NCBI GenBank assembly: GCA_965207685.1
Contig: OZ242294.1
Location: forward strand, 1,226,677 to 1,290,676
From: Thermodesulfobacteriota bacterium
GTDB taxonomy: Bacteria; Desulfobacterota_D; UBA1144; Nemesobacterales; Nemesobacteraceae
Direction: 5' to 3'
Length of the DNA stretch: 64,000 bases
Shown here piece by piece: positions 5,971-64,000 of the stretch (positions within the stretch are counted from its first letter, which is position 1; each line of letters starts with the position of its first letter). Below the pieces are notes generated by a model. It was not told the origin of the DNA. It ran no database searches and saw only the letters and a program-made list of their open reading frames with translations. The translations under genes and the position numbers were made by a program.

Positions 5971-5997
5971 TTTGGGATCCCAGGAAACAAATATCCG

Positions 5998-9156: not shown

Positions 9157-9196
9157 AAACCCATCGGACAGGTGGAACAGGAGAAAACCTCGAACG

Positions 9197-11181: not shown

Positions 11182-11243
11182 CTGAAATAAAAATTCTCCT
11201 CGGCTTCAATATACATACACGGGGGGATTTATCAAAAAAGCGC

Positions 11244-12135: not shown

Positions 12136-12228
12136 GGATTTTCCTCCAGCAAAATTGTTAAAATCAAAGCAGCAATATAATATAATACGTCAGGACGATT
12201 TCACCATACAAAAACGGGGGATATTAAA

Positions 12229-12630: not shown

Positions 12631-12652
12631 GTGCGCCTGCGACCCGAGGCTC

Positions 12653-13774: not shown

Positions 13775-13787
13775 GAACAAAAATCTT

Positions 13788-14759: not shown

Positions 14760-15121
14760 TTCGGTGTCCTGAACACATCACGGGGAGGAGTCTGCTCCCG
14801 GTAGCCGGCAGGTTTGTTCTGCAGAAGCTCCACCTCCAGCTTCCCGACTTTTTTCTCGAGATCCTTCACGGTTTCCCTGCTCCGCCTCAACTCGGACTTC
14901 GTGGAATGGCCTCTGGCAAAAGTCAGCAGAAAAAAAACAAAAGCGCCCAGAAGAAACGAGGCTCCTATTATCCCGGCATTGTAAACCGCCCACGTATTCT
15001 TAAAGGAAAAAAAACCCAGCTCGACTCTGAATACCTGCGTGGCTATCTCGAGGTTCTGTATGAAGAAAACGGCTACAAAACAGCATATGATCAGGAGAAA
15101 AAATCTTTTTACGTGTTTCAT
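14756..15121 (-). CDS. LapA-like (DUF1049) small inner-membrane protein
   Basis: Probable start at MKHVKRFF. Two transmembrane helices followed by a charged coiled tail. Overlaps the lipA start by 4 bp. Confidence 0.5.
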   Translation of the reverse strand: MKHVKRFFLLIICCFVAVFFIQNLEIATQVFRVELGFFSFKNTWAVYNAGIIGASFLLGAFVFFLLTFARGHSTKSELRRSRETVKDLEKKVGKLEVELLQNKPAGYREQTPPRDVFRTPK

Positions 15122-15275
15122 CGGTTGTTTGAAAAACGGTTTCGCTAAACCAGCGTGACCCGTCAAGCGGTACTGTATTGTAGAATATCGGTTTTTCGGG
15201 AAAATACCAGCCGCATCAGGCTGCTGTATAGGCGTTGCAAGACGAAGATTGATATGGAGTAAGCGGAAACCCCGG

Positions 15276-28714: not shown

Positions 28715-31700
28715 TCAGAAGTTAACCTCCCCTCTCAGCATGACTCCATGCTCCGGCTCAGCAGTATCGCTCTGCCTGCGTTCTGTCTCAAGACTCAGGC
28801 TCGCGGAGCGCCCGAGATCAAGACGGCTTCCAAGCCTGTAGTGCTGCCGCCCGTCTCCGCCGAGCCTCAGGCCGCTGTATGGAGTAAGAAGTCCGTCTCC
28901 GCCGAGAGCAGCAAGCCCATAACCGAATTCCGCGTCAAGGTGCATATCATTGCCCCCGCCATCCTCAGACGAGAGCCCATCCACTCCACGCTCCCAAAGA
29001 CTGTCAACGCCGCTTGAGGTATCTCCCCACTCAGGCGCCACGCTGAACAGCACTCCCCGCTTGTCCGCCCCCGTATCGAAGATCACGGTTCCTCCCACGC
29101 CCCACTGGCTGAACTCCTCCGAGCTGTGTGCCGCAAGCCAGCGTCCCCTGCCCGAAATGCTGAGACCCAAGCTGGGGTTCTCATAGAGGAAACCTCCTCC
29201 TATTTCGACCCCCGTTCCCGTCTCCCCGTCTCCTCCGTCATGGCGAAGCGCTACCTCGACCAAGGGATTAAACCAGGTTCCGGACGCAAACCTGTACTCG
29301 TAGCTTCCCTCCATGCTGAGACGCAGTTGGTGCACGCCGAGCGACATCTCCTCGATCATGTAGTCGTCCCCCTCAACGTCCATCCACACCTTAAACGCCT
29401 CGCTCTTTAGCGAGAAAGTCGTGTCTCCCACGTCAAACACCCTGGCGCTTCCTCCCGCCGCCACCGATTTGTAGCTTAAATCGCTTGTGGCTACCTTCCT
29501 CGCACCCTCGTCGTCTATGTCTATTTGCCCACGCCCGTAGCCAAGCGCACTCCAGAGGTAAACATCTTCCGAGAGGAACCAGGAAACATAAGGAGACACG
29601 CTCACCATCTTGATATAGTAATCGCCCCTTCCTACTTCTCCCGGCGTCGTGTCCGTATAATCGAAATCTCCCTTCGTAAGAGACAGGGAAAGTCCCGTCA
29701 ACACCTTCTCGTTAAGCCACCTGTCAACTCCCATGTAGCCGCTCACGATCCGCCCGTCCCACTTGAACCATTCGTCACTTGCGACCGAAAAATTGTTGTA
29801 ATCCGCCTTGCCCCAGAATCCGATGCTTCCTCTTCTCTCGACGATCACGGGCTTTTGATCCTCGTCAACCCACATGTTGTTATCCGCAGAATCCTCCTGT
29901 GGAGACTCTCCGACGTGTCCTTTCGGGTCTTCTTCCGGATGCTTTCCCACATAGCCGCCTGGATCTTCCTGCGGATGTTCCTTCGGTTTCCTGAGCATAA
30001 CTCCGGCCTCTATTATGAATGAAGACCCGTAAAGCAGCTCCTCGAGGCTGAGAGCTTCCCACTGGTCAGGGTCGTCCCATATATCGGTTCCAATCACTTC
30101 GTGAAGGTTCGCGTGCTGATCCATAAGTCTGAACATCCCCGTACGCTCGTATGATCCCGAAAGCACGCTGTCAAGACGCCAGGTGAGGGCGTCAACCGAA
30201 TTCCTGAGCATGGTTCGCCCGAATGTGGGAAGGATTCTCAGGCTTGCGCGCCTTGCGCGCCGGATCTCTGTAGTGTTCGCCTCGGCCGTTGCTTCGGCTG
30301 AGGGGTCCCCCGGACCTACATCGTTCACCGCGCGCACCCTGAAAGAGTATACGGTGCCGTTTTCAAGGCCCGCGACCGTGTAGCTGGTTTCATTCGTCTC
30401 CCTGGAACCGCTCTGATCTATTGAGGTCCAGCCGCCGTAAGACCCGTTTTCCTCCTTCTGGCTGTACTCGTAACCGGTGATCGGCAGACCGCCGTTATCC
30501 GCAGGCCGCTCCCATACAAGAGTCACGCGCTGGTCCCCCGGCGTCGCTGTCAGATTCCGGGGCGCACCCGGCACTGTGGCGGGCGTTGCGCTTGCTGGCT
30601 CGGAGGCGGGGCCGGGACCAACGCTGTTTACCGCCCGCACCCTGAACCCGTAGGTCTCTCCATTGGTAAGCCCCGTGACGGTGTAGGAGGTGGTCGTTCC
30701 TCCTGTTGAGATCCACTCACCGTCATCAACCTTGTATTCATAACGCTCAATGGAGCTTCCTCCATTATCAGACGCATCCCAGCTAAGAGCTACCTCTCCA
30801 TTGCCCCGTGTCGCCATCAAGTTCCGGGGCGCACCCGGTACAGTGGTAAGCGTAACGCTTGCCGGCTCGGACGCGGGGCCGGGACCAACGCTGTTTACCG
30901 CCCGCACCCTGAACCCGTAGGTCTCTCCATTGGTAAGCCCCGTGACGGTGTAGGAGGTGGTCGTTCCCCCTGTTGAAACCCATGGGCCTCCATCGATCCT
31001 GTATTCGTAGCGTCCAATGGGACTTCCTCCATTATCGGGCGCATCCCAGCTAAGAGCTACCTCGCCATTGCCCCGTGTCCCCTCCAGGTTCCGGGGCGCA
31101 CTAGGTACCGTGGCGGGGGTTGCGCTTGCCGGCTCGGACGCGGGGCCGGGACCAACGCTGTTTACCGCCCGCACCCTGAATCTGTAGGTCTCTCCATTGG
31201 TAAGCCCCGTAACGGTGTAGGAGGTGGTCTTTCCTCCTGTTGAGGTCCACTCGCCGTCATCAACCTTGTATTCGTAGTGTTCAATGGGGCTTCCTCCGTC
31301 ATCGGGCGCATCCCAATTAAGCGTTGCCCTACCGTCCCCACTCATAGCCATCAACCCCGAAGGCGCACCCGGAAGCGCCGACGACGGGACGGGATTTCTC
31401 ACCTGCGAGGGCACTTTCGTATTTGAATCCGGAGATCCATTCTCATTCACGTCGGTCACGTTGATGGTCACCGTGATGGTACCAGTCAAGCCGCCCGGGT
31501 CCCGTGCGGTAACCGTAACCGTATAAATACGCTTGGGCCCCTCGTAGTCAAGGGCCGCCTTTGTCTGTATCTGCCCGGAAGTCTGGTCTTCAAGCGCAAA
31601 GGAAGCCGCATCCGTACCCCCAAGCGAATAGGTGAGACTGCCCCGGTCACCGGAGTCCGGGTCCGTAGCTGTAACCGCCGCACCGATATCTCTTCCAGGC

Positions 31701-33679
31701 GGCGTGTTCTCCGCCACAGAACGCGTGGCCGTGTTGGGCTGGAAGTAAGGCGCATTGTTTGACGGCGGCTCTACACGCGTCACAAGGTCAGAAATTGCGT
31801 ACGCCATTTTCCCGGAACCGCGCCGGTCCGTGTAGGTCACCTTTGCCCTCAGGTAATTGTCCACATCGCCCGATACCGGCGTGTAGGCGTTGCCGTTCGG
31901 GGTCCCGCTTACCGAACCCCAGCCATTCGTCCGGCTGGTTGACTTCTCCCATGTCCACGTTTCACCCGATACTGAACCGTCGGGATCGATTAGAGTCGCT
32001 TCAAGCTCCGTACCCACCTGTGGCTGCCTGGAAGAAAGAGTCACCTCTCCCTCTTCCTCCACATCGGTCACATTAATAGTCACCGTGGTCGTAATTTCCG
32101 AGGTCCTGTCCGTGACTTTAACCACCACGCCCGCATAAGAACTTTTGGTCTCGTAGTCAAGAGGCGCCTTGGTCTTTATCTGCCCGGAGGAATCAATATC
32201 AAATGAAAGTTTAGATACATCATCGAGCGAGTAGATAAGTGTTTCGTTTTCCGGGTCCGTAACCGCAATCGGTGTCCCGATGTCTACTCCAGGCCCCGTG
32301 TTCTCAGCCACAGAAAACATGTCCGGTGGGGGATCAGGATCAAAATAGGGCGCCCAGTTTACTGCCGGCACCTTTCCAGCGGACTCCGCCTCCGCGCTTT
32401 TATCAGGACCGTGGCCATCGGTATAGGAGGCCACCGCCCGCAGGTATTTATCTTCATCGTCTTCAACATTCGGGTCGCTGTCGGCAACCGGCGTGTAGGT
32501 TGCAGTCGTGGAACCGCTGCTCGTGGCACCGGTGATCGGATTCCAGTTGGTTTTGTCAGCTGACCTATACCATGTCCACTCCACATCCGTTATAGAACCG
32601 TCAGGATCAGTCAAAGTCGCAGTCAGCTCCTCATCTATTGCCAGCGTGCCGGACAGGGTCACCGTTCCAGGCTGATCTGGAGGAGGTACGCCTTCCGTCG
32701 TCGCGCTTGCTATGTTTGAAGGATCGCTTGTGCCCTCGGAGTTAATAGCAGAAACCTGGTAATGCCGCGTGTCTCCGGGAGAAAGACCGCTATGTGTATA
32801 CGTCGTGTCTGTATTGCCAGTGTCGTCTTCAAGATTCGTCCAAGAATAATTTGGGGGACCAGATGTTGAGACCTCGATTTTGTAGCCTTCCACGTAGGAG
32901 TTGGGAGCGCGCCACTTAAGCACAATCATGCTCTGCCCTTTAGGTTCCGCTTCCAGGTTCCTAGGCGGATCCGGAGCAGTGATGGAACAGACAACTCCCG
33001 CGTGTTCGAAGCTTCTGCAATTATGGGTGCCGACAGGAGTAGTAGACTGCCCAGCGCCCCTAGGACAATCAATCAGCCTCGTTTCAGTGCCTACGCAGAG
33101 AATATCGTCAAGCCAGAATTCATTGTTAGTCTTGTAGTCGCCCTTGGAAGAATCGATTATTGAAGGGCCGTCAAGCTCTAGCAGCGTCTTCGCGAATTCC
33201 GGCATATAATCCGAATGCTGACCACCTGTATCCTTCAGCTGCTTGCACGCGATTTCTGCGTCTTCGTCGGTGAAATAGTCATCGCATATTCCTCTCCACT
33301 CGGCATCGGTACCGTCATTATAATAAACTTCAAGCCTGCCTATGTCGGCCGTGACCGTACAGCTACTCGTGTTCGTGGTATCGCACAATCGAAGATCCCC
33401 GTTGCTCTGCGCATGCGCAGTTACGGAGAAAAACGCCAGCGGCAACAGTACTGCCAGCAGAAAGCAGACCCTGTCTCTCAGGCTTTCTGTTTTCCCAAGA
33501 AAGGGCGGCGGACGCAGAAACCCCCGCCCCTTCAGACAAAAGAGCGTTAACAGGGTTTCAAGTGCCTTGGTTTTTGCCCGGTTCGGGACTGGCTCAGTCT
33601 TTCTCTCGTCCGGATACGGGGACAAGAGGGATTTTCGCTGGCGCTCTACCGAAGAGACAAGCCGTTTATGTTCCACCAT
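28715..33679 (-). CDS. giant cell-surface protein: signal peptide, SRCR-like domain, FN3, 2x(Ig-like + cadherin repeat), 4x FN3, C-terminal autotransporter-like outer-membrane beta-barrel
   Basis: 1654-aa ORF. The hydrophobic signal segment LLAVLLPLAFFSVTAHA lies ~70 aa into the ORF, so the true start codon is uncertain. The SRCR consensus blocks are GRLEV.YNDG..WRGICDD, FWLDDILCVGTE..L.DCP and HNC...EHAGVVCS. The cadherin-like blocks are VAEN..PG..IG..V.A.DPD...L.YSL...FAID..SG.I.T...LDYE. Four FN3 repeats follow (WDAPDNGGSPI..YEY....GLTNGETY.FRVRAVN). The C-terminal ~520 aa are beta-rich and end in ...RGEVNF. Confidence 0.8.
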   Translation of the reverse strand: MVEHKRLVSSVERQRKSLLSPYPDERKTEPVPNRAKTKALETLLTLFCLKGRGFLRPPPFLGKTESLRDRVCFLLAVLLPLAFFSVTAHAQSNGDLRLCDTTNTSSCTVTADIGRLEVYYNDGTDAEWRGICDDYFTDEDAEIACKQLKDTGGQHSDYMPEFAKTLLELDGPSIIDSSKGDYKTNNEFWLDDILCVGTETRLIDCPRGAGQSTTPVGTHNCRSFEHAGVVCSITAPDPPRNLEAEPKGQSMIVLKWRAPNSYVEGYKIEVSTSGPPNYSWTNLEDDTGNTDTTYTHSGLSPGDTRHYQVSAINSEGTSDPSNIASATTEGVPPPDQPGTVTLSGTLAIDEELTATLTDPDGSITDVEWTWYRSADKTNWNPITGATSSGSTTATYTPVADSDPNVEDDEDKYLRAVASYTDGHGPDKSAEAESAGKVPAVNWAPYFDPDPPPDMFSVAENTGPGVDIGTPIAVTDPENETLIYSLDDVSKLSFDIDSSGQIKTKAPLDYETKSSYAGVVVKVTDRTSEITTTVTINVTDVEEEGEVTLSSRQPQVGTELEATLIDPDGSVSGETWTWEKSTSRTNGWGSVSGTPNGNAYTPVSGDVDNYLRAKVTYTDRRGSGKMAYAISDLVTRVEPPSNNAPYFQPNTATRSVAENTPPGRDIGAAVTATDPDSGDRGSLTYSLGGTDAASFALEDQTSGQIQTKAALDYEGPKRIYTVTVTARDPGGLTGTITVTINVTDVNENGSPDSNTKVPSQVRNPVPSSALPGAPSGLMAMSGDGRATLNWDAPDDGGSPIEHYEYKVDDGEWTSTGGKTTSYTVTGLTNGETYRFRVRAVNSVGPGPASEPASATPATVPSAPRNLEGTRGNGEVALSWDAPDNGGSPIGRYEYRIDGGPWVSTGGTTTSYTVTGLTNGETYGFRVRAVNSVGPGPASEPASVTLTTVPGAPRNLMATRGNGEVALSWDASDNGGSSIERYEYKVDDGEWISTGGTTTSYTVTGLTNGETYGFRVRAVNSVGPGPASEPASATPATVPGAPRNLTATPGDQRVTLVWERPADNGGLPITGYEYSQKEENGSYGGWTSIDQSGSRETNETSYTVAGLENGTVYSFRVRAVNDVGPGDPSAEATAEANTTEIRRARRASLRILPTFGRTMLRNSVDALTWRLDSVLSGSYERTGMFRLMDQHANLHEVIGTDIWDDPDQWEALSLEELLYGSSFIIEAGVMLRKPKEHPQEDPGGYVGKHPEEDPKGHVGESPQEDSADNNMWVDEDQKPVIVERRGSIGFWGKADYNNFSVASDEWFKWDGRIVSGYMGVDRWLNEKVLTGLSLSLTKGDFDYTDTTPGEVGRGDYYIKMVSVSPYVSWFLSEDVYLWSALGYGRGQIDIDDEGARKVATSDLSYKSVAAGGSARVFDVGDTTFSLKSEAFKVWMDVEGDDYMIEEMSLGVHQLRLSMEGSYEYRFASGTWFNPLVEVALRHDGGDGETGTGVEIGGGFLYENPSLGLSISGRGRWLAAHSSEEFSQWGVGGTVIFDTGADKRGVLFSVAPEWGDTSSGVDSLWERGVDGLSSEDGGGNDMHLDAEFGYGLAALGGDGLLTPYSGLRLGGDGRQHYRLGSRLDLGRSASLSLETERRQSDTAEPEHGVMLRGEVNF
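30545..31350. repeat. three tandem near-identical ~267-270 bp units (each encoding one FN3 domain) inside the giant surface-protein gene
   Basis: Near-identical ~110-nt stretches (GCCGGCTCGGACGCGGGGCCGGGACCAACGCTGTTTACCGCCCGCACCCTGAA...) recur at about 30596, 30861 and 31128. The ORF track also shows duplicated frame-shifted peptides at 30495-30716 and 30783-30983. Confidence 0.8.
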
Positions 33680-40809: not shown

Positions 40810-41271
40810 ATGAGTGTTAAAACGATTATTACGAGACAGTATCGCGAAAAGCTTAACCAAGCCGCTTTGAAGTTTCAGAATTTCACCCTACCTTCTGAAG
40901 GCTGGATTCGTACAGCCAGAAAAGCTCTTGGCATGTCTGCGGCGCAACTGGCCCGCCGTCTGGGAAAAACCCGAGCACTTGTCTCTAACACAGAAAAGGC
41001 CGAGCTTGACGGTAGAGTGACTTTAAAAACCATGCGGTCCATGGCGGAGGCGGCAAATTGTCGTTTCGTTTATGCTTTTGTACCAGAAGAAAGCGTAGAA
41101 ACCATCATCAGGCAGCGCGCCAGAGAAAAAGCCAAGCAACGCGTGATGGAAGCCTCTAGCCACATGGCACTTGAACAACAAACTATTTCTCAAAGCCAGA
41201 TCGAATTTGAAATAGAACGTCTTGCAGAAAACATTCTCAGAGAACGGCCAGGCTATTTGTGGGACGACTAG
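40810..41271 (+). CDS. mobile mystery protein A (XRE-type HTH; TIGR02612-like)
   Basis: 153 aa. HTH (LGMSAAQLARRLGKTRALVSNTEK) and a C-terminal region typical of the protein A partner of Fic-family protein B. Low GC. Confidence 0.75.
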   Translation: MSVKTIITRQYREKLNQAALKFQNFTLPSEGWIRTARKALGMSAAQLARRLGKTRALVSNTEKAELDGRVTLKTMRSMAEAANCRFVYAFVPEESVETIIRQRAREKAKQRVMEASSHMALEQQTISQSQIEFEIERLAENILRERPGYLWDD

Positions 41272-41280
41272 AATCCAACA

Positions 41281-41871
41281 ATGATGAACCATTCAACAGA
41301 AGATACAATGTCGCTTGATCCCGATGAGGTGCGAGGCCTAAAATTCAAGCACATAACGACGCGGAGCGAACTGAATCATCTGGAACAAGCCAACATCCAA
41401 AGCGGCATAGCATGGATGCGCCAAAGCAGACGCACTGACCTGCTGTCGGAAGGTTACGTATGTCAACTGCATAGACGTCTGTTCGGCGAAGTCTGGTCAT
41501 GGGCAGGGACATTTCGTCATACAGGCAAGAATATCGGGGTTGACCCACTCTATATTGCCGTAGAACTGCGCACACTGCTTGACGACATGAAATATTGGTT
41601 CAACAATGAAACCTATCCGCCGCGCGAAGCGGTAATCCGCTTCCATCATCGTCTGACGGCAATTCATCCCTTTCCCAACGGCAACGGTCGTCATGCCAGA
41701 ATCATGGCGGACGCACTGCTCATCAAATTGTACAAACTACCAACCATAGACTGGGCCGGAGGCCATGATCTCGCTTCTATGAACAGCAGGAGAAAAACCT
41801 ACATTCAGGCGTTGCAAGCGGCGGATAGAGGCAATTACGAGCCCCTGCTCGCATTTGCGGGTATCAGGTAA
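41281..41871 (+). CDS. mobile mystery protein B (Fic/Doc family; TIGR02613-like)
   Basis: Canonical Fic motif HPFPNGNGRHAR (HxFx(D/N)GNGRxxR), 196 aa. Immediately downstream of protein A. Confidence 0.8.
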   Translation: MMNHSTEDTMSLDPDEVRGLKFKHITTRSELNHLEQANIQSGIAWMRQSRRTDLLSEGYVCQLHRRLFGEVWSWAGTFRHTGKNIGVDPLYIAVELRTLLDDMKYWFNNETYPPREAVIRFHHRLTAIHPFPNGNGRHARIMADALLIKLYKLPTIDWAGGHDLASMNSRRKTYIQALQAADRGNYEPLLAFAGIR

Positions 41872-48904: not shown

Positions 48905-49168
48905 TTAGCGCTTAATGTCCTCGCGATATTTCGCCTCTCTTGACAGCCAGAAATCCGCACTGCCACCGAGCACCTGTTCCAGCCGAAGTGCGGCTTCCTC
49001 CGTAATCACCGCCTTGCCTTGTACAAGTTGGCTTACGTGCTTTGTCGTATAACCGGCACGGTCTGCGAATTTAGCCTGAGTCCAGTTCTTTTCCTCCAGG
49101 ATGTCACGGATCGTATCTCCAGGCGGCGGCAACAGCCATTTCGGTTCAAACCGATCAAGATTTTCAGT
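48905..49168 (-). CDS. higA: HigA-family antitoxin-like HTH protein (XRE)
   Basis: Start at MTENLDRF. HPGEIL-like (PPGDTIRDIL), HTH, and the ...SADFWLSRE tail typical of HigA. No HigB partner adjacent. Confidence 0.6.
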   Translation of the reverse strand, partial: TENLDRFEPKWLLPPPGDTIRDILEEKNWTQAKFADRAGYTTKHVSQLVQGKAVITEEAALRLEQVLGGSADFWLSREAKYREDIKR

Positions 49169-49202
49169 CATGATAGCTCTTATAAATAGAACCCATATTG
49201 AC

Positions 49203-49529
49203 TTAACCTGAAATAAGATAAATCCGCTTTTGCAGATTGCCGGAAGCAAGAGCAACAACTTTGGGGATAAACGGCCTTAATTCCTGTAAACGGTTTTGAC
49301 GCGCAACCATGATGATGACGGGAATTGTCAGGTAAGCCAAGTTCTGCTGGTATTCAATACCCCGGTCTACTGTGATCAGGACATCAAATCCATGGGCGGA
49401 GGCGAGGCGCAACAGATCGCCGTTGCTGCTGCCAGTCCATCCCATTTGCTGGACTGTGCGTACTTCAAATTCACCGGGAAAAAACGAACCGAGTCTCTTT
49501 GGAACGGATTCGTCAAGCAGTAGCTTCAT
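49203..49529 (-). CDS. DUF5615-family PIN-like protein (putative toxin)
   Basis: Start at MKLLLDESVP, which is the characteristic N-terminus of DUF5615/Mut7-C-like PIN proteins. Confidence 0.6.
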   Translation of the reverse strand: MKLLLDESVPKRLGSFFPGEFEVRTVQQMGWTGSSNGDLLRLASAHGFDVLITVDRGIEYQQNLAYLTIPVIIMVARQNRLQELRPFIPKVVALASGNLQKRIYLISG

Positions 49530-49737
49530 CCACTTTACCCACGAGCATTGCCTTTGCACGTTCAAGTACAGCAACCGCCTGATCGCGCGTTACTGTAGGG
49601 TAATCTTCCAAGAACTCGTCGAGACGGTCTCCCGCTTCCAAGTGCTCCATTAGGATTCGCACAGGAACCCTTGTTCCAGAAAAAACCGGAGTTCCGCCTA
49701 GAATGTCCGGATTTCTGTCAATTAACTTGTCCGCCAT
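49513..49737 (-). CDS. DUF433-domain protein (putative antitoxin partner of DUF5615)
   Basis: 74 aa. GGTPVFSGTRVPV motif of DUF433. Its stop overlaps the DUF5615 start by 17 bp, the usual toxin-antitoxin arrangement. Confidence 0.65.
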   Translation of the reverse strand: MADKLIDRNPDILGGTPVFSGTRVPVRILMEHLEAGDRLDEFLEDYPTVTRDQAVAVLERAKAMLVGKVDEATA

Positions 49738-54548: not shown

Positions 54549-55208
54549 CTAATAATAGTATCTCATTCCACTTCGGAAAATACTGAATTCGCTTCGAATC
54601 CCCTCCTTTATACGATCATAGTATTCTGTCTCACCCCTCTGCCATTTCCGAAACACAGCCCAGCAGCAGTAATCCGCGACCTGCAGTCCGTAGTGCGAAC
54701 GCGACGCGTGATGCAGGATGTGATATCTCCTGCCCTGCGGCAACATCTTCGCCAACGCGAGCTGGACACCTTTTTCAATCGCCCGCCTTTTCTTATTAAC
54801 CGGAACCGTATCAGTTATTACTATGACATCGTCAGCGTCCTCCCCCAACTGGGGAACAAGGAATTTTAACAGGTATCCGAGCATTTCCGGGTAGAAGCGC
54901 TTTACATCCTGAAGGGCCGGGCCGGTTTTTCTTTTCTCAACTACAAGACAGTCAATACGCATGCTTCCAAGATTTCTGGCGATCAGATCAAATATGCTGT
55001 TGCGGACGTGAATGTTGTCTTCTGAGCAGTGGAAATACTCCATCCCCAAGCCGTATTCGAGACAATCGTGTCTGTAGGCGTCAAGCTTCTGGTATATAGG
55101 AAACGGTCGGCGCATACTGATGCTCGTCAATATAAAGTAAGGCGTTCCGTTTGTGCTGAAGTCGAGATTGCCCGCTTCATCAAGAAAAATGTAAGTGCAG
55201 GGTGTCAT
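54549..55208 (-). CDS. DUF3800-domain protein
   Basis: Start at MTPCTYIFLDEAGN. The N-terminal YIFLDE.G and C-terminal GLQVADYCCWAVF are the two hallmark motifs of DUF3800. Confidence 0.6.
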   Translation of the reverse strand: MTPCTYIFLDEAGNLDFSTNGTPYFILTSISMRRPFPIYQKLDAYRHDCLEYGLGMEYFHCSEDNIHVRNSIFDLIARNLGSMRIDCLVVEKRKTGPALQDVKRFYPEMLGYLLKFLVPQLGEDADDVIVITDTVPVNKKRRAIEKGVQLALAKMLPQGRRYHILHHASRSHYGLQVADYCCWAVFRKWQRGETEYYDRIKEGIRSEFSIFRSGMRYYY

Positions 55209-55550
55209 ATTCTTTCCTTCCACAAGACCCGCCCAGTCCGGCAAAATCGTAAAAAGCGTGGAAACCGGACTGGATACCCGCTTCAAGGCTTGATCCAACT
55301 CCGCTTATTTCCAGTGAACTCCTTTGCCGTTAACAATCAAGAAGCGGCTGGTTGAAGTAGAAATTCAGCAGATTGATCTTGGAAAATACCTGATCGGCAT
55401 TCTCAAACCAATAATGTTTTTCAGTAAGGAAAAACCTGATTCTCTCGCACCCTGTGGACTAACCGGATTCGCCGTTCCTGGAAAATTTCTCAAAAAAAGA
55501 TATGGACATTCGGTACTAATTGTAATACACTGTATTTCAAATATCAAAAA

Positions 55551-56963
55551 ATGGACAAAAAAATAAAGGATGCCAACAGGAAAAACCAAGAAAAGACCCG
55601 GGAGAAAAACCCCTTGATCGGACTCCGCGTAAAGAAACTCAGCGACATCCCTCCGCCCGCGGGAATAGCCATAGGAGAGGGCGTCGCGCTTGACTGCGAT
55701 CCCGAAACAAAGCCCGCCCCGGTAACGGTTCCCGACGCAGACCGCGAGGGACACATATTCACCATGGGCGCCACGCGAAGCGGAAAGACCCGCCTCGCCG
55801 AGGGCATGATAGAGCACGATATAAGGGCGGGGAGAAGCATCCTGTGGATAGACCCCAAGGGGGATAACGCTATTTTCTCAAAAATAGTGGCCACAGCCAG
55901 GGAAACAGGAAGGGAAGAGGATCTTCTTTTCTTCTCCCCGGTTTTTCCCCGCTACTCGGTAAAGATAGACCCTCTCTCTCACTACTTCATGCCCGAGGAG
56001 GTCGTTAACCACGTCGTCTCGGGAGTACGGGTCCGCGAGGAGTTCTACTTCAACATAGCCTACGAGGTGACGCTCGTCGTGGTGCAGGGACTCATGCTGA
56101 TATCGAGATCCCTCGGGGAGCGACCTATGTTCACCTTCCGCAGGATAAAGGAGAACATAGGCTACAGGGAACTCGAGGGCCTTCGCGCCCAGATAGCCGA
56201 GATAGACGATCCCGAGGCGGAGGAGATCCTCATGAACCTCGACCAGATCCTATCCTCTCCCCAGGACTACTTCTCCAAGGTCTCCTCAAGCCTCCGTACC
56301 GTGATAACGTCGCTTAGCTCGGGTTCGGTGGGAGAAATCATCGGCAAGGACACATCAAACCGGTTCATAGAGCGCCTTGAGGCGGGAAAGAGAGTGATAC
56401 TCGTCGTGCAGACAGGCTCACTTCTCACCAGGAAAACGGCGCATATAATGGCGCGGGTGCTTCTCTCCATGGTGCAAAGCTTCGTAGGCAGGGTGCTGGC
56501 TTCTCACCGGAAGATCGACCCTCCCTTAGCAGTGTACGCAGACGAGGCGTCAAATGTCCTTTACTTCGGGATAGACGACCTTTTCAACAAGGCGGGCGGA
56601 GCCGGAGTGTGGATTCACATGCTGACCCAGAGCAAGCAGGATCTCGTGGCCGAACTCGGCCCAGCCTACACGGGCAAGATACTCGACAACACGAACACCA
56701 AGGTAGTTTTCCGCGTTAACGACCCCAACACCGCAGCCTACGCCTCCCGCATGGCCGGGACGAGAAAAAGATTCTCCCCAATAATGAGTCTCGGCGGGGG
56801 TCTCAGCTTGAGGGAGATAGAGGAGAGCAGGGTGCCGCCCGAGAGCTTCCTTAGGCTCGGGCGAAGGGAGTTCTACGCCTTTACCTTCGACGGCATATAC
56901 AGGGGCAGGACCCTCGATGTGAGTCCGTGCGAGGAAATACGGTTCCCGGAGATAAAAAACTGA
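55551..56963 (+). CDS. traD: type IV coupling protein-like ATPase (TraD/TrwB/VirD4 family) without N-terminal transmembrane anchor
   Basis: Walker A GATRSGKT followed by ILWIDPKGD, Walker B VYADEAS, a TQSKQDL sensor, and a TraG-D_C-like NTNTKVVFRVND. The N-terminal 60 aa are charged and not hydrophobic. Confidence 0.7.
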   Translation: MDKKIKDANRKNQEKTREKNPLIGLRVKKLSDIPPPAGIAIGEGVALDCDPETKPAPVTVPDADREGHIFTMGATRSGKTRLAEGMIEHDIRAGRSILWIDPKGDNAIFSKIVATARETGREEDLLFFSPVFPRYSVKIDPLSHYFMPEEVVNHVVSGVRVREEFYFNIAYEVTLVVVQGLMLISRSLGERPMFTFRRIKENIGYRELEGLRAQIAEIDDPEAEEILMNLDQILSSPQDYFSKVSSSLRTVITSLSSGSVGEIIGKDTSNRFIERLEAGKRVILVVQTGSLLTRKTAHIMARVLLSMVQSFVGRVLASHRKIDPPLAVYADEASNVLYFGIDDLFNKAGGAGVWIHMLTQSKQDLVAELGPAYTGKILDNTNTKVVFRVNDPNTAAYASRMAGTRKRFSPIMSLGGGLSLREIEESRVPPESFLRLGRREFYAFTFDGIYRGRTLDVSPCEEIRFPEIKN

Positions 56964-56986
56964 TGAAGGAGAAAAGGAGAACCAAA

Positions 56987-58360
56987 ATGAAGTACCTACC
57001 GCAAGTGGCGATCAGCTGGGAGACGGCAGCCGCGTTTTCGCTTCTCTGCTTCTCCCTGGGCGCGACCTTCTGCGCGCTTGCGCTAAGACGCAGAAGAGAA
57101 AAACGAAGCGGACCCGAGACAATAGAGTTCATAACGGCTTCGGCGGCGAGAGCCTCGCAGAGACAAGACGGCGCAGAATCAGGAACCATAGGAGCTCTCG
57201 CGGAGAGCCTCTGGCTGAGAAGCGATCCCGGGCTTGCGGTGCTCTCGGATTCAGAACCTTTGGTCGTAACCACCTTCAAAAATCCAGAGACCCAAACTTT
57301 CTGGACAGAAGAGATAGAACCCAATCGCCGACTCTTTGAGAAAAGACGCGAACTTGCGGTAATAGAGAGGGTTCTCCTAGAGCTTGATGAACATGGCCTC
57401 TGCTCAAGTGTCGTTTCTGGGGACGGGAAAAGCGCGTTTTTGCCAACTGCAAAGAGATTCTCGCGCGTTACCCTGCTTGACCACTCGCTTCGGGTAGCGC
57501 GGTGCATGAGGGGAATATACGATTCGCTCTACACGGAGAGAATTCTCTACGGGAAGCATCTCATCGCCGCTCTCGCCCACGATGTCGGAAAAATGGAGCA
57601 CCTGCGCCCCGAAGACAAGCGCTACATAAAGGATGACCACGCGGCGGCATCGGCAAGAGCGCTTAACGGTTGGATAATGGAGTGCGGGGGAGAAAAAGCC
57701 GCTTTTGAGTTTCGCTCCGCGGTGGACGCCGTCAGGAACCATCACAGAAGCGCAAACGCACCCGATCCCATTCTGGAGAACCTCAAAAGAGCGGATACGG
57801 CGGCACGGGAGGAGGAATTCTCGGGCGTGCGCAAAAAGCCACGCCCGGCGGCCGCGCCCGACGGCGGCACGGATGCCGAACCACCCGGGTGGCTCCTTCG
57901 CGACATGCCCCAGATACTAAACGACCATGTGGGGCCCGCAATAAACATGGCGGCACTCGAGGAGGCTCCCTTTGCCCGGGCGATCTCCTCCACAAACGGG
58001 ATCGTCTACGTCGATCCCCACTACCTTTTCGACGGCGTTAGGGAGCATATGGAGCGGGAGGAGATAGCGGACATGAGATTTTTCGACCCGTCCCGCCCCG
58101 CGGAGCTTCAGGCAAAGCTCCTGGTAACAAACTCACTTAAATCCCGCAACTGGGTGGGCGAAGGAGTTCGCGACGGCTACTACGCTGCCTTCTGGAATTA
58201 CGAGTATAGGGGGAAGAAGGTAAGAAAAGGCGGTTTCTGGATACCCGTTTTCGCGGAAGCGTTTGAAGTGCCGCTTTCCGAACTTGAAAAAAGAAAAAAC
58301 GCGGAGCTTCGCCGGATCACTTCCGTTGGGCCGTGTCTTGCGCGGGGACGGAAAAAATAA
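56987..58360 (+). CDS. membrane-anchored HD-domain (metal-dependent phosphohydrolase) protein
   Basis: Start at MKYLPQV. It is preceded by GGAGAAAAGGAG and follows the coupling-protein stop. One transmembrane helix (AAAFSLLCFSLGATFCALAL), then HD motifs H...HDVGK. The region upstream of this start is arginine-rich. Confidence 0.55.
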   Translation: MKYLPQVAISWETAAAFSLLCFSLGATFCALALRRRREKRSGPETIEFITASAARASQRQDGAESGTIGALAESLWLRSDPGLAVLSDSEPLVVTTFKNPETQTFWTEEIEPNRRLFEKRRELAVIERVLLELDEHGLCSSVVSGDGKSAFLPTAKRFSRVTLLDHSLRVARCMRGIYDSLYTERILYGKHLIAALAHDVGKMEHLRPEDKRYIKDDHAAASARALNGWIMECGGEKAAFEFRSAVDAVRNHHRSANAPDPILENLKRADTAAREEEFSGVRKKPRPAAAPDGGTDAEPPGWLLRDMPQILNDHVGPAINMAALEEAPFARAISSTNGIVYVDPHYLFDGVREHMEREEIADMRFFDPSRPAELQAKLLVTNSLKSRNWVGEGVRDGYYAAFWNYEYRGKKVRKGGFWIPVFAEAFEVPLSELEKRKNAELRRITSVGPCLARGRKK

Positions 58361-58424
58361 ACTAAACTCAACCGGGCGGCAAGTGTCTGTCCGAAAAAAA
58401 ACACATTTTACTGGAGGAAACAAA

Positions 58425-58838
58425 ATGAAAAATAAAAAAACAGGCAACGTTACACTCGTCCTTGGCCAGACACCGTACGGGCAGCTCGAGCGGGAAGCCC
58501 GCAAGAGAGCGCTCTCGCCGGGAGACTATCTCGAGATGCTGATAGAAATGGATCACATCTCCAACACGGGAGGTGACCCGGGGGAAATGGTGTCCGTGTC
58601 AATATCGGAGAGACACTACTCCCTTCTTCGCCGGGAAGCGGAAGCTGCCGGACGCGGGGCGGACAAGAGCGCCGAGATGATAATAGGCATCTCGGCGGAG
58701 ATGCTCCCTGAGAGGCCGCTTTCGAGGGAGAGGTTTGACGCCGTGGTGGAAGCGTGGGGAGGTGTCGATTTTCCGAGCGAGAGGAAACAGGGAAACGCGC
58801 AGGAGCGCGGAAACTCTCTTCAGAAAGCCTCGTCCTAG
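58425..58838 (+). CDS. small protein with two tandem ribbon-helix-helix-like repeats (TraY-like relaxosome accessory protein candidate)
   Basis: 137 aa. Two beta-strand + helix units (VTLVLGQTPYGQLEREARKRALSPGDYLEMLI and VSVSISERHYSLLRREAEAAGRG...MIIGI). It sits immediately upstream of the pilin gene, as traY does in F. Confidence 0.45.
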   Translation: MKNKKTGNVTLVLGQTPYGQLEREARKRALSPGDYLEMLIEMDHISNTGGDPGEMVSVSISERHYSLLRREAEAAGRGADKSAEMIIGISAEMLPERPLSRERFDAVVEAWGGVDFPSERKQGNAQERGNSLQKASS

Positions 58839-58962
58839 TGACTGAAGAGGCGGGGAATCTTCATTTCCCCGCAGAGGCTTAACGACAAAATCTATATGGC
58901 ATAACAAAAAAACGGACATTTGCCGCACCTGCAATCAAACGCGAAAAAATATCTCACAACAC

Positions 58963-59310
58963 ATGAAAACCACATTACTAAGGAGGCTGGCTAATATGAA
59001 AACATACGAGGCAAGATTTCCCCGCGCCGTCGCAGCCGCGCTTTTAACGGTGGTCGCGCTGGCACTTTTTTTCCCGGACACGGCACTCGGGGGGACCACG
59101 GGCACGGAGTTCCAGAGCATCTACGACAAGGTAAAGGGATGGTCCACCGGCTACCTGGGGAGGCTGCTTGCGCTCTGCACTTTCATAATAGGTCTCGGGG
59201 CTTCCATCATGCGCCAGACCCTTTTTCCCGCGCTCACGGGAATAGGAGTGGCGCTCGTGGTCTCGCTCGGCCCGTCACTCATAGAGGGAATCGCCACGGG
59301 AACGTTCTAG
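58963..59310 (+). CDS. traA: F-type conjugative propilin TraA
   Basis: The leader ends ...VVALALFFPDTALG (compare F TraA ...AAVLMMFFPQLAMA). The mature part is ~72 aa with two hydrophobic segments. The position before traL-traE-traK-traB fits. Confidence 0.65.
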   Translation: MKTTLLRRLANMKTYEARFPRAVAAALLTVVALALFFPDTALGGTTGTEFQSIYDKVKGWSTGYLGRLLALCTFIIGLGASIMRQTLFPALTGIGVALVVSLGPSLIEGIATGTF

Positions 59311-59577
59311 ATGAGAACGAGAATCCCGAGATACATAGACGACCCTCCCCAGATATTCTGGTGGGAGATCGATGAAGTGGCGCTTTTCAGCGGGGCGTTC
59401 GTGATCGGGGCGCTTTCGGGTCAGACGCTCGGAGGACTGCTCGCGGGCTTTGTCCTTTCCTGGCTGCTTGAGCGCCTCAAATCCGGGCGGGGAAGCGCCT
59501 TTCTCGTTCACCTTGCCTACTGGTACGGTCTCTCGGGGGTAAAGCCCGAGAGTCACAGAGAGAGGTTCTTCGAGTGA
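59311..59577 (+). CDS. traL: TraL-like type IV conjugative transfer protein
   Basis: 88 aa. RIPRYIDDPPQIF...DE...LKSGRGS...YWYGL pattern matches F TraL (R.P..LD.P..I.G...DE ... LK.GRG ... YW..P). One transmembrane segment. Confidence 0.6.
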   Translation: MRTRIPRYIDDPPQIFWWEIDEVALFSGAFVIGALSGQTLGGLLAGFVLSWLLERLKSGRGSAFLVHLAYWYGLSGVKPESHRERFFE

Positions 59578-60164
59578 TGCTGATACGCACGTTCCGGGAG
59601 AGATGGCTTAACCTGGCCCGGGAAAACGGCCTGCTTCGCTTCGCCGTGGGGGCACTCTGCGTAACGGTAGCGCTTCAGGGCTGCCACATGAAAAAGCTCT
59701 CCGAACGCACGACCGTGCACGTTCACGTGCCCGAATACATGCAAAAGGACTTCACCGTCAGCGCAGCGGGAACGGCTTCGCTCGCCTACACCGAGCAGTG
59801 GGCGCTCAGTCTCCTTCCCTTCGTAGCGTCCTTCACCGCGGAAACCGTGGACTTTAACATAAGGCAGTTCCTCCTCTACGTTCACCCCGAAAGCTACGAC
59901 CCCATTTCCGGATTCCTGCTTGAAAAATCAAAAGAGATAAAAACAAGCGGAGTCGCCCAGGCTTTTTTTCCGAAAACGGTGGCCATGGAGGAAGAAGGAA
60001 CGGTTGTGGCGGTAAGCGGACAGCGCACCAGGGTAGTCGGTAACGTGGTGACCGACCAGAGGGAGGTTGTCTACAGGATCCACTTCGAACTGGGGGTTAA
60101 CAACCGTCCGCTCGTAACCGAACTTATCGAAAACGAAGGAGGGCAAGGTGCAGATGAATACTGA
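59574..60164 (+). CDS. traE: TraE-like (VirB8-like) inner-membrane conjugation protein
   Basis: 196 aa with an N-terminal transmembrane helix, in the position and size expected for traE. The sequence match is judged weakly from memory. Confidence 0.45.
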   Translation: MMLIRTFRERWLNLARENGLLRFAVGALCVTVALQGCHMKKLSERTTVHVHVPEYMQKDFTVSAAGTASLAYTEQWALSLLPFVASFTAETVDFNIRQFLLYVHPESYDPISGFLLEKSKEIKTSGVAQAFFPKTVAMEEEGTVVAVSGQRTRVVGNVVTDQREVVYRIHFELGVNNRPLVTELIENEGGQGADEY

Positions 60165-60870
60165 TCTTCCCTCGCGCACTCTCGCTGTCTTCGTCGCGGC
60201 ATTTTTTGCTTTCGCCACTACCGCAACCGCTCTCACCATAGATCTCGGAAAAACCCGGGAGGAAGAACCGATATCGATCGGGGTATCCCGCACCGACACA
60301 AACAGGATCAAACTTCCGGAAACCATAATAAACGCCTTCAGTTCAAACGGGTCGATTGACGTAAAGATAATCGACCGCTCGGCGCTTGTAAGAGCAGAAG
60401 ATCCGGCGGAACTAATAATCTTGACCGGGAAAAGAAGGCTAACCCTGCTGCTTTCGCCCGAGGATGGCCCCTCGCGCACCGTCATAATGAGGGACGAAGA
60501 CTCACCGTCCCCAGATCCGGCCAAGGAGGCAACAGGAAGCGCAGAGCCCCTACCCTACGAAAAAGCCATAACGGAACTCGTGCTCTCCCTGGCCTCGGGT
60601 TCCTCCGATACGGAAAAAACCTCAGAAAAAGAGCAGGAATTCTCACCCTCGCCCTCCCTTTTCCTCGCACGCCACGCGGAGGCGGCATCGCCTCCCCTTT
60701 TCGCCTCGCTCTACATGGTAAGAAACGGGGGATCCAAAAAAGTCGTTCTCACGGAAAGCATGTTCTCCTCAGACCCCGAAACGGTAGCCGTGGGCATGGA
60801 GCGGGACGAGCTTTCGCCGGGAGAGTCCGCGCGGATCTTCGTGGTCACGAAAAAGGAACCTGGGCGATGA
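60148..60870 (+). CDS. traK: TraK-like (VirB9 N-domain/secretin-like) periplasmic protein
   Basis: 240 aa with a signal peptide (AVFVAAFFAFATTATA), in the position and size of traK. Family call by synteny. Confidence 0.45.
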   Translation: MQMNTDLPSRTLAVFVAAFFAFATTATALTIDLGKTREEEPISIGVSRTDTNRIKLPETIINAFSSNGSIDVKIIDRSALVRAEDPAELIILTGKRRLTLLLSPEDGPSRTVIMRDEDSPSPDPAKEATGSAEPLPYEKAITELVLSLASGSSDTEKTSEKEQEFSPSPSLFLARHAEAASPPLFASLYMVRNGGSKKVVLTESMFSSDPETVAVGMERDELSPGESARIFVVTKKEPGR

Positions 60871-62025
60871 TCGGGAAGATACGGAAAATCTACGCCGAAA
60901 GAAAACGCCAGACTCTCGCCGCGGCGACCGTACTGTCCGGGTTTGCCATCGTGGCCCTGGTTCTGCTCCTGCTCGGAGGAGAGGAAAAGGGACTGCTCGG
61001 GGAGAAGAAAACGCAGGGAAGCATAAAGATTCTGCGGGGAGTGGATCTTGCCCGGGAAAAATGGCGCATAGAGGGGGAAAAGCGCCTGGGAATGATAGAG
61101 ACCGAACAGAGGGAGATAAGAAAAGAACTGGAAGCAATTTCCTCCGCGCTTGGGGAGTTCAAGAAGAAATCTTCCGAACCGTACCCCTACCCGCCTCCAC
61201 TCGTCGGGAACGAAGCCTCACCCGAAGCGGAGTTCCCTCCCGCTCCGCTCCTGCCGGGCGCGGCCGAAACGCCGCCCGAGCCCCCGAAAAGACAAAACCC
61301 GATACGGGTTTTCTCTCCCATCGGGGGCATCCCGGCCGAGGAATCGGCCCCAGAGCCTGCGCTTGTTAACTGGATTCCCTCGGGAAGCTTTGTTCCGGGA
61401 GTACTCCTAAGCGGCCTCGACGCCCCCACAGCAACCGCTTCCTCGCGAAATCCGCATCCCGTGCTGATACATCTCGTGGAGGCTTCGCGCCTGCCCGGCC
61501 TGCGGCGTATGAACATAGCGCGCTGCCACGTGACGGGAGCAGGGTACGGACAGCTCGCAAGCGAGAGAGCGTACGTGAGGCTCGAGAGGATGGCGTGCGT
61601 GCTTCGTTCGGGAGACGTGATAGACACCAAGATAAAAGGATATGTGGCCGGAGAGGACGGAAAGACCGGGAATCCGGGGAAGGCTGGTTTCAAAGCAGGG
61701 AAAGATGCTCTCGCGGGGAATCCTGGCCGGCTTTGCCTCGGGCTTCGGCGAGGTGGTTGAAACTTCGAATTCAACATCCGGGGTGGTCGCGGGCGGAACA
61801 TTTACCGTGAGTTCCAGGAGTTCCCGGGATCTTGTGAAGACAGGAATCGGGGGCGGGGCTGGGGAAGCCGGAAGGCTTCTCGCGGAGTACTATCTCAAGC
61901 TCGCCGAGGAGGTGTTTCCGGTAATAGAGATAGACGCGGGGCGCCGAGTCGACGTGATCATAACCGAGGGGATGGAGCTTGCCCCCAGAAAAACCGACTA
62001 CGCCGCAAGGAAGGAAAAGGGATGA
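60867..62025 (+). pseudogene. traB: TraB (VirB10-like) gene with apparent +1 frameshift near 61650-61760 (two overlapping ORFs 60867-61760 and 61642-62025)
   Basis: The first ORF has an N-terminal transmembrane helix plus a Pro-rich linker (PYPYPPPLVG...PPAPLLP...PPEPP) and the start of a beta-domain (IDTKIKGYVAGEDGKTG). The second ORF continues in another frame with the VirB10-like tail (LSRGILAGFASGFGEVV...GRRVDVIITEGMEL). Confidence 0.6.
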
Positions 62026-62525
62026 GGAAATTCGCCCCGTTCCTTATTTTTTTCGCTCTGTTCGCTACGGCCTGCGCCGGCGGGTCGTCGCGCTACGGCT
62101 GCCCAGCGGCATCGGGTCATTCATGCAAAAGCGTCTCAGAGGTTTATGCCGAGACAATTTCGGGTCGCAGAAGCGGTGCGGATCCTCTCTCTCCGGGCAA
62201 CGGAAAAAGCGCGCGCGAAGGCGTGAGAAAAAAGTTTCTGAAAGGCAGCGCTTTCCGCCCCGGGAAAAATGAGCGGAGCGAAGCGGGAACCACCCAGACC
62301 GCGCAACCGGAGAAAACGATGCCCGTTTATGTTCCCCCGCGCACAATACGCCTCTGGATAGCCCCGTGGCAGGATGCCCGGGGCGTCTTTCACTCGGGCA
62401 AATACGTGTACCTGCTTTCGGGCAGGGGGCGGTGGACTATAGGCGGCAAAGCTGTTCCGCTCGGAGAGTCCGATAGAGGGTATCCGCAAAACATCCGCCT
62501 CCGGGGAACCGGGAGGGTTCCCTGA
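62022..62525 (+). CDS. traV: TraV-like outer-membrane lipoprotein
   Basis: 167 aa. Signal peptide with Cys (LFATAC) and a C-terminal IRLWIAPWQDARGVFHSGKYVYL motif typical of TraV. Confidence 0.6.
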   Translation: MRKFAPFLIFFALFATACAGGSSRYGCPAASGHSCKSVSEVYAETISGRRSGADPLSPGNGKSAREGVRKKFLKGSAFRPGKNERSEAGTTQTAQPEKTMPVYVPPRTIRLWIAPWQDARGVFHSGKYVYLLSGRGRWTIGGKAVPLGESDRGYPQNIRLRGTGRVP

Positions 62526-64000
62526 TGGGCGTTGCGAAAGAGCGGCTGCGGGAGCTTGCCGCAAGGGATTCGCTTTCGGATTACCTTCCCTATGTGGCAT
62601 GGGAAGAGGGGATGTACGTTCTGGCCGACATGTCGCTCGGCTTCATATGGGAAATAAACCCGCTTCTTTTCGCAGGAGAGGACGCAAAGAGGATTCTCGG
62701 CGGAATGCTCGGCAACCGTGTGCTTCCACCGGGAACCTCGGTCAAGTTCCACGTGTTTGCCTCCGAGCTCATATCCCCGTTTTTCCCCGAGGAAGAAACG
62801 GCGCAAGCCAGGATCTGCCGGGAGATCGCCGCCGAAAGAAAGCGGCTTTACACCCTCGAGATGCGCGACAGAGTCGGGACCCCCGCGAGGGATTTCCGGT
62901 TTCTCGTGTCGGTGAGGATTCCTTCCGGCTTCGGAAAAAAGAAAGTTGCGGAATCCGTGTGGGACAAGCAGACGGAGGACACCCGCAAGCTCGGGGCGAA
63001 CGTGGCGGGGGTTCTCAGTTCCGCGCAGCTTTACCCGCGCGACCTCCCTCCGGCCGAGCTGATACTCGTCCTGCGCGAGGCGCTTAACCCCGATGCGCGC
63101 TGGTATGATGACCCTTACTATCTCGGCACCGGCGGTCTCTATAACCGAAACGATGAGATAAGAAACCAGATAATAGACCGAGAGACGATGATAGAGGTGC
63201 GGGCGGGGGAAATAAAGCTCGGGGACTCTCACCTGCGGGGATATTCCCCCGCATCCATGCCCGAGTACTTTTCGCTCGACGAGTTCCACGAACTGCTTGG
63301 AGATCCGTTGCGGGGACTCTCGCAGGTGCCCGTGTATTTTTTCCTGCAGGCGGGATTCGTCGTCCCGGAGAGAAAGAAGGCCTCTCAGGTAAGTGCCAAG
63401 GCCGTCATGGTGAAGCAGCAGAGCTTCGGGCTCGTGACGAGATTCATTCCAAAGCTCAGGAAAAAAGCGGAGAACTTCGACTTTTTCGTAAACGCCCTTG
63501 AGGACGAGGACCTGGTCATGGGATCCCTGAGCCTCTTTCTCCGGACCCGAAGCGACGAGGAGGCCGAGAGGGTAAAGGAGATGGTAACGGGGATATGGAG
63601 GGCCAGAAACTTCGATCTTCGCGAGGAAAAATACATACTGCTCCCCCTCCTGCTCGAGGGCCTCCCGCTCGGCTCGGAGCCCGCGTTCGTCCGCCTTCTC
63701 AGGCGGAATTCAACGATGCAGACCTCGGCCGGGGCATCCATGCTTCCCGTCATGTCAGACTGGAAGGGAACGGGCTCGGGACCTCTTACCTTCATATCGA
63801 GAAGGGGACAGATAATGAAACTTGATCTTTTCAGCTCAGCTTCCAACTACAACTGCGCGGTGTTCGCCCAGTCGGGCTCGGGAAAGTCCTTTCTAACCTC
63901 GGACATGATCACCGGATATCTTTCGGAGGGGGCGCGGGTGTTCGTGATAGACATAGGCCGCTCATACGAGAAGCTCTGCGGTCTCGTGGGCGGTGAGTTC
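62524..64000 (+). CDS. traC: TraC (VirB4-family) conjugative ATPase, N-terminal ~490 aa (continues past window end)
   Basis: Translated by hand from the ATG at 62524: MGVAKERLRELAARDSLSDYLPYVAWEEGMYVLADMSLGFIWEINPLLFAG ... NYNCAVFAQSGSGKSFLTSDMI...VFVIDIGRSYEKLCGLVGG. This parallels F TraC (GFMLEAIP ... CGTSGAGKTGL ... FDMGDGYKSLC). Not in the ORF track because no stop falls in the window. Confidence 0.85.

Follow-up and report, generated by a model that had tools for sequence, protein, structure and literature searches.

The traB gene on a chromosomal stretch of 64,000 nucleotides from an uncultured Candidatus Dadabacteria bacterium (Thermodesulfobacteriota in the GTDB) was interrupted by one extra nucleotide. 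This stretch (contig OZ242294.1, positions 1,226,677–1,290,676) is referred to as the window, and coordinates are window positions unless stated otherwise. Two overlapping open reading frames (ORFs), ORF1 (60867–61760, plus strand, 297 residues) and ORF2 (61642–62025, plus strand, 127 residues), are the halves of one traB/virB10 gene, whose product is a member of the TrbI family by its domain, architecture, genomic context, and similarity to solved structures. The extra base was present in none of the orthologous loci, and both halves of the gene carried the same signature of purifying selection. In all, a well-conserved gene is interrupted by a single base in a mundane way, through either an artefact of assembly or a knockout of very recent date.

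ORF2 was located in the +1 frame with respect to ORF1, with (61642 − 60867) mod 3 = 1. The Pfam TrbI profile (PF03743; 188 positions, gathering threshold of 35 bits) matched the two ORFs in complementary parts. Residues 170–272 of ORF1 covered profile positions 2–98 with 49.2 bits, and residues 9–113 of ORF2 covered profile positions 93–188 with 63.4 bits. Both scores were above the threshold and the two matches jointly spanned the full profile, which placed the C-terminal domain in the TrbI family. When the translation was inspected by eye, rather than with a transmembrane (TM) predictor, an N-terminal hydrophobic helix (LAAATVLSGFAIVALVLLLLGG) was located at residues ~17–38 and a Pro-rich linker at residues ~104–142 (EPYPYPPPLVGNEASPEAEFPPAPLLPGAAETPPEPP for residues 104–140). 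The 5' part of traB (60867–61670, plus strand, frame 0) encoded native residues 1–268 and comprised the TM helix, a coiled stretch, the Pro-rich linker, and the first half of the TrbI/VirB10 beta-barrel. The 3' part (61672–62025, plus strand, frame +1) encoded native residues 269–385 and the stop codon, and comprised the second half of the VirB10 beta-barrel and the C-terminus. A preliminary description of this DNA, made from the letters and an ORF list, had proposed one TraB/VirB10 protein split over the two ORFs, with a TM helix, a Pro-rich linker, and a VirB10 beta-domain. The split TrbI match, the intact orthologues, and the solved structures 7spb and 7okn confirmed the first proposal, and the translation and the TrbI profile agreed with the second.

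When the two frames were joined at Gly268|Ile269, a fusion protein of 385 residues was obtained. In a large protein collection, dozens of uninterrupted homologues of 379–388 residues matched the fusion with 80–92% identity at ~100% coverage, and more than 50 homologous protein clusters were full-length single chains. Some of the intact homologues were named as originating from Candidatus Dadabacteria metagenome-assembled genomes (MAGs), and the entries P0006 and P0017 were labelled 'hypothetical protein' by NCBI. The single uninterrupted reading frame was missing in the window, where the 1-nt insertion left ORFs of 297 and 127 residues. For comparison, 21 orthologous loci (L001–L021) were collected from Dadabacteria/Thermodesulfobacteriota MAGs in a scan of one genome per species, and several of these loci lay on chromosome- or megabase-scale assemblies. 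The fusion shared 96% amino-acid identity with the TraB of the closest relative, L001 (OZ219814.1), and the junction was seamless in the alignment with the intact orthologues. The traB orthologues of this lineage, for example those of L001, P0006, and P0017, shared 80–96% identity over 385 residues, the flanking genes, and the chromosomal locus with the window gene, but were uninterrupted at the position of its insertion.

The fusion was also similar to the solved F-type TraB proteins. A phmmer search of the PDB with the fusion matched 7spb/7okn with an E value of 3e-39, aligning residues 47–375 to chain residues 80–399, and the alignment was unbroken across the junction. The junction corresponded to Gly296|Ile297 of pED208 TraB, within the C-terminal domain, and at this equivalent position the window gene was interrupted by the 1-nt insertion. 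The TM helix, coiled segment, Pro-rich linker, and C-terminal TrbI/VirB10 beta-barrel followed each other in the same order as in TraB of pED208 and F (7spb, 7spc, and 7okn). However, the window TraB was shorter, with 385 residues compared with 453 in 7spb and 461 in 7okn. Its earlier characterization as a TraB of normal length was thus correct for the clade (385 vs. 379–388 residues) but not with respect to the solved chains. The score against the NCBIfam model of F-plasmid TraB (NF010289) was 174 bits, below the equivalog cutoff of 504 bits, which marks the protein as distantly F-type-like and not as an equivalog. The window traB was chromosomal and conserved in the lineage, whereas traB of F and pED208 is plasmid-borne.

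The lesion was one extra nucleotide within 61666–61672 (CC GGG AA; ACCGGGAA). A frame change within ~61650–61760 had been predicted, and this range of ~110 nt was narrowed to a single base. Frame 0 was native up to Gly268 (GGG, 61668–61670) and frame +1 was native from Ile269 (ATC, 61672–61674), and the overlap was read as ...GYVAGEDGKTG in frame 0 followed by IRGRLVSKQGKMLSRGILAGFASGFG... in frame +1. BLASTN against L001 placed the gap at 61671. The identity of the extra base depends on the ancestral synonymous codons: it was a C if ACG GGA ATC became ACCGGGAATC, a G if ACC GGA ATC became the same string, or else an A. Two segments of the ORFs were not native. The out-of-frame tail of ORF1 (61671–61760, plus strand) consisted of 29 residues, NPGKAGFKAGKDALAGNPGRLCLGLRRGG, followed by TGA, and had no counterpart in the intact orthologues. 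The N-terminal extension of ORF2 (61642–61671, plus strand), MWPERTERPG, was translated from frame +1 upstream of the indel and did not belong to TraB.

The insertion was not shared by any relative. In a MAFFT alignment of 22 traB DNA sequences, composed of the window and its 21 relatives, the extra column was occupied in the window only and was absent from all 21 orthologous loci. The window allele was AAGACCGGGAATCC, and the relatives carried AAGA-CGGGGATCC, AAGA-CGGGAATCC, or AAGA-CCGGAATA. When the window was compared with L001 over positions 55481–64000, the DNA identity was 95.5%, and the traB insertion was the sole uncompensated indel inside a gene across these 8.5 kb. JGI metagenome contigs, scanned for either allele by a pattern with a 4–6-nt variable gap, gave 0 matches and no independent sighting of the insertion. 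The insertion is private to the window assembly, and is very recent compared with the time since the closest relative split off.

Selection on the two halves of traB was compared by Nei–Gojobori counting against L001 after removal of one base from the window gene. The dN/dS value was 0.116 over the 266 codons upstream of the break and 0.124 over the 119 codons downstream in the restored frame, with 18.5 synonymous and 7.5 non-synonymous differences in the latter. These equally low values indicate that purifying selection has acted on the restored frame of the 3' half for essentially the whole time since the split from L001. The neighbouring genes were surveyed by tblastn with 13 cluster proteins of L001: the coupling protein, the HD-domain protein, orf137, pilin, TraL, TraE, TraK, TraB, TraV, TraC, a TrbI_F-like protein, an S26 TraF-type peptidase, and the TraW-like orf207. 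Every cluster gene in the window except traB was recovered as one full-length high-scoring segment pair (HSP), with traC matched up to the window end, and all other tra genes in the window were therefore intact, a check that the preliminary description had proposed. An old pseudogene or long-decaying element was not supported, given the downstream dN/dS value and the intact neighbouring tra genes. Among the explanations offered earlier, a decaying conjugative element, in the sense of old decay, was accordingly dropped, on these grounds and on that of the conserved locus in the 21 genomes, and a sequencing or assembly indel was kept alongside a very recent knockout.

As written, the gene would yield a product of 297 residues, composed of 268 native and 29 junk residues, without the C-terminal 117 residues of TraB. 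Such a product would retain the TM helix and the linker but only the first half of the VirB10 beta-barrel, the second half being lost. The corresponding region of solved TraB/VirB10 proteins forms part of the outer-membrane core together with TraK and TraV.

Frameshifts were also found in the clusters of related assemblies. The traB gene was frameshifted in L019 (G4 to G3), in L020 (inside a G10 tract, where relatives have GGGG), and in L021 (C5 to C6). In L081 (= P0043), a G to GG change was located 36 nt upstream of the window site and led to the same out-of-frame stop and likewise to a 297-residue product. Single-nucleotide deletions were found in traC of L003 and L019, in the coupling-protein gene of L010, and in the S26 peptidase gene of L013. 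In locus coordinates, the traB indels were positioned at about 10440–10760 (L019 and L020), about 6740 (L021), and 6764–6804 (L081), mostly in G or C runs. The L081 locus, on a 22.8-kb contig, contained several lesions together, with traV also in two frames (7156–7646) and the coupling-protein gene called as two (753–2102). The cluster frameshifts in relatives were all singletons, with none shared between genomes and a frequency of about 1 per 32 kb of cluster DNA. Consensus errors would be expected to leave such scattered, unshared singletons, and so would deleterious alleles that do not persist. Within the 21 genome loci, traB accounted for three of the seven frameshift events with ~11% of the cluster coding length (binomial estimate, P ~ 0.03). 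This mild excess could result from the homopolymer-prone sequence of the Pro/Gly-rich linker or from real instability. The window lesion was in the same category as the sporadic single-base indels of MAGs and nascent frameshift pseudogenes, with which it shared the singleton 1-nt indel, the short run, purifying selection otherwise, and unshared indels in relatives; no difference set it apart from them.

On balance, the extra base is probably a consensus, polishing, or sequencing indel in the MAG, and the real gene would then be intact and functional. The string ACCGGGAATC was the union of two synonymous haplotypes, ACC GGA ATC (as ACC GGA ATA in L014 and L016) and ACG GGA ATC (in L003, L013, and L017). 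A mixed-strain consensus that kept the insertion but not the matching deletion would yield exactly this string, and the underlying uninterrupted strings would be ACCGGAATC and/or ACGGGAATC, corresponding to the two synonymous haplotypes. The ability of a mixed-haplotype consensus to generate the observed string was taken to favour an artefact, as was the strong conservation of traB and of the whole cluster. An artefact is made plausible, in addition, by the comparable singleton 1-nt indels in related MAGs, many of which are assembled at chromosome or megabase scale.

Several points weigh against an error in the consensus. The indel was located outside any long homopolymer, and long-read errors concentrate in long homopolymers. 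The GGGAAT/GGGAA runs that had been pointed out near the site were present but only 2–3 nt long, and the eight 5-nt runs of traB were all correct. Two MAGs with a frameshift in the cluster, L010 (k141_) and L021 (NODE_..._cov_), appeared to be short-read assemblies according to their contig names, and hence real frameshift alleles probably circulate in these populations. Furthermore, an error and a real mutation of very recent origin look the same in the sequence and can be told apart only by reads. With these points included, we lean towards an artefact and less towards a genuine mutation of recent date.

A serious, if more tentative, alternative is a genuine and very recent loss of function. 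A real 1-nt duplication in traB, fixed or segregating in the symbiont population, would produce the truncated TraB, disable the type IV secretion system (T4SS) at its outer-membrane core, and represent the first step of pseudogenisation. A site in a 2–3-nt run is atypical for a long-read error, and a real mutation agrees with the frameshifts that occur independently in relatives, including the two apparent short-read MAGs, both in traB and elsewhere in the cluster, as well as with the excess of events in traB. The remainder of the window was also clean. A scan of ~50 window proteins revealed no further split gene, but may have missed truncations that lack a domain signature. The same-strand overlapping ORF pairs at 11244/11662, 17998/18669, 24223/25008, 37860/39380, and 48905/49203/49513 were all distinct complete genes, such as cmk/aroA, mazG/M24 peptidase, and nagZ-like/anmK, and ~30 further window proteins had full-length Pfam domain matches. 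With no second frameshift in the window, the assembly was not generally rich in indels. However, selection was not relaxed past the break (dN/dS of 0.124 vs. 0.116 upstream), and the neighbouring tra genes were without a second lesion. In 21 species-level genomes the cluster is strongly conserved at a single chromosomal locus, which argues for its necessity, and the occurrence of all frameshifts as singletons on terminal branches fits errors or short-lived deleterious alleles.

A broader form of this alternative would regard the scattered traB frameshifts as real in general. Counted over 23 Dadabacteria loci (the window, L001–L021, and L081), traB was frameshifted in five, including the G10 tract of L020. 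It is improbable that these frameshifts reflect symbionts that repeatedly switch off or lose the outer-membrane core of a vertically inherited F-type system, in a contingency-like manner or through decay, possibly with low-level +1 slippage at GGG-A as a buffer in the window genome.

A programmed +1 ribosomal frameshift, or a tolerated low level of GGG-A slippage, is effectively excluded, and the extra base can hardly be a recoding signal. In this mechanism, the P-site tRNA-Gly would slip from GGG (61668–61670) to GGA (61669–61671) with ATC as the next codon, giving the conserved ...GKTG-IRGRLV... and some full-length TraB as a regulatory device. A Shine–Dalgarno (SD)-like GGAGAGGA was indeed present upstream at 61650–61657, and a +1 shift would be required for the full-length product as in prfB, which encodes RF2. 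However, none of the 21 orthologous loci had the shift, and more than 50 homologous protein clusters were full-length without it. At prfB-type +1 sites the SD spacing is ~3 nt. The SD-like GGAGAGGA ended 10 nt before the shift codon, and no SD was present at ~3 nt. The 0-frame codon after the site was AAT (9.4 per 1000), which was neither rare nor a stop, and the 0-frame stop was 30 codons downstream. Unlike in prfB, the site thus had neither an in-frame stop nor a hungry codon, and no autoregulatory logic. The predicted fold of 61640–61760 was no more structured than that of shuffled sequences (z = -1.13), and no A/T run was available to permit transcriptional slippage. The preliminary description had already ranked programmed frameshifting last among its explanations, and the absence of the insertion from relatives and of the expected signals upheld this ranking.

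It is scarcely credible that the ORFs are two genuine genes, coding for a short TraB and another small protein (TraP, for example) or for the two working chains of a split VirB10: ORF2 has an ATG of its own at 61642 with AAGGA before it, but at a distance of only 1 nt, a poor geometry for ribosome binding, the break falls inside the TrbI beta-barrel (profile position ~93–98 of 188) and not between domains, both parts are on one chain in every orthologue, and no homologue has anything that matches the first 10 residues of ORF2 or the last 29 of ORF1. The pair traB plus traP, named earlier as the outcome that would overturn a split traB, was ruled out by the alignment to the intact single-chain orthologues and to 7spb/7okn.

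The traB gene was embedded in a cluster resembling F-type conjugation systems, all on the plus strand. The first gene (55551–56963) encoded an intact type IV coupling protein (TraD/VirD4-like), with a single tblastn match and an NCBIfam SXT_TraD match of 1.3e-47, below the cutoff; the TraG-D_C and T4SS-DNA_transf Pfam matches of this protein were located on the L001 orthologue. The next gene (56927–58360) encoded a conserved HD-domain protein of 477 residues (Pfam HD, 3.3e-06), which was present in all 21 loci. It was situated between the coupling-protein and pilin genes in every related locus and had no NCBIfam match, and to our knowledge such a protein has no known role in F-type systems. 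The TraA-family pilin gene (58963–59310) was intact, with 79 bits against NF041281 TraA_gammapb (cutoff of 50 bits) and a single tblastn HSP against L001. It was followed by intact traL (59311–59577; Pfam TraL, 1.9e-22; TIGR02762, 69 bits, above the cutoff), traE (59574–60164; Pfam TraE, 6.8e-26, profile positions 4–179 of 182), and traK (60148–60870; Pfam TraK_C and TraK_N), the stop codon of which overlapped the traB start (ATGA). The lipoprotein gene traV (62022–62525; Pfam TraV, 1.1e-15) was intact downstream of traB, and its start overlapped the traB stop (ATGA), an arrangement consistent with translational coupling between traV and the +1-frame 3' part of traB. The gene for the VirB4-type ATPase, traC (62525–64000), was open to the window end with its first ~491 codons, and residues 1–491 of the 807 residues of L001 TraC were matched by tblastn in a single HSP with 97% identity.

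The gene order traL-traE-traK-traB-traV-traC was that of F-type systems, and the adjacent traA (pilin)-traL-traE-traK-traB-traV-traC genes identified by Pfam and NCBIfam constitute an F-type (MPF_F-like) core. The TraC of L001 scored 601.6 bits against TIGR02746 (cutoff of 567 bits) and passed as an F-type equivalog. In L001, traC was followed by a TrbI_Ftype-like gene, an S26 TraF-type peptidase gene, and a TraW-like gene (TIGR02743, E = 2.9e-31, below the cutoff). TraU, TraN, TraH, and TraG were not found within 10 kb in L001, and the window itself ended inside traC. Pfam scans of genes from 43 kb up to the cluster detected no relaxase or integrase, and the cluster did not qualify as a conjugative element in this respect. 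The flanks were housekeeping genes, and the coupling protein was the only mobilisation-type component present. The upstream neighbours in common with related genomes were a secreted 503-residue protein (unk503), a 240-residue protein (unk240), and a TolC-like OEP. The whole 13-gene cluster (55551–64000 in the window; about 4700–15500 in locus coordinates) was syntenic in all 21 species-level genomes, with 63–98% amino-acid identity for the core genes. These comparisons give the cluster the appearance of a chromosomal secretion system passed on vertically, and not of a mobile element. Nothing relevant was found in the literature on Dadabacteria with type IV secretion or conjugation. A DUF3800 gene (54549–55298, minus strand) was located between the 240-residue protein gene and the coupling-protein gene; its presence in only two of the 22 loci, the window and L012, marks a variable spot beside the cluster.

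Further features were observed elsewhere in the window. An apparently intact IS110-family transposase gene (20221–21468, plus strand) was located amid housekeeping genes (aroA, cmk, an rpsA-like S1 gene, and phosphoglycerate mutase). Two toxin–antitoxin-like modules were found, one with a DUF433 protein, a DUF5615/PIN-like protein, and a helix-turn-helix (HTH) protein (48905–49737, minus strand), and the other with an HTH protein and a Fic/DOC protein (40810–41871, plus strand). The gene at 28715–33679 (minus strand) encoded a eukaryote-like repeat protein of 1654 residues with fibronectin type III, cadherin, and SRCR domains. Eukaryote-like repeat proteins and domains of this kind are reported from sponge symbionts.

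Annotators should combine the two ORFs into one traB with a frameshift flag, and should count them neither as two genes nor as a recoding event. If the extra base is real, the secretion or pilus apparatus is expected to be non-functional, leaving a dead secretion and conjugation channel in this strain. If it is an artefact, the TraL-E-K-B-V-C core of the organism is complete. Neither outcome alters the knowledge of VirB10 proteins or of frameshifting. More notable than the frameshift is its context, with an F-type cluster kept at one chromosomal locus across an uncultured lineage and eukaryote-like domains encoded in the same window.

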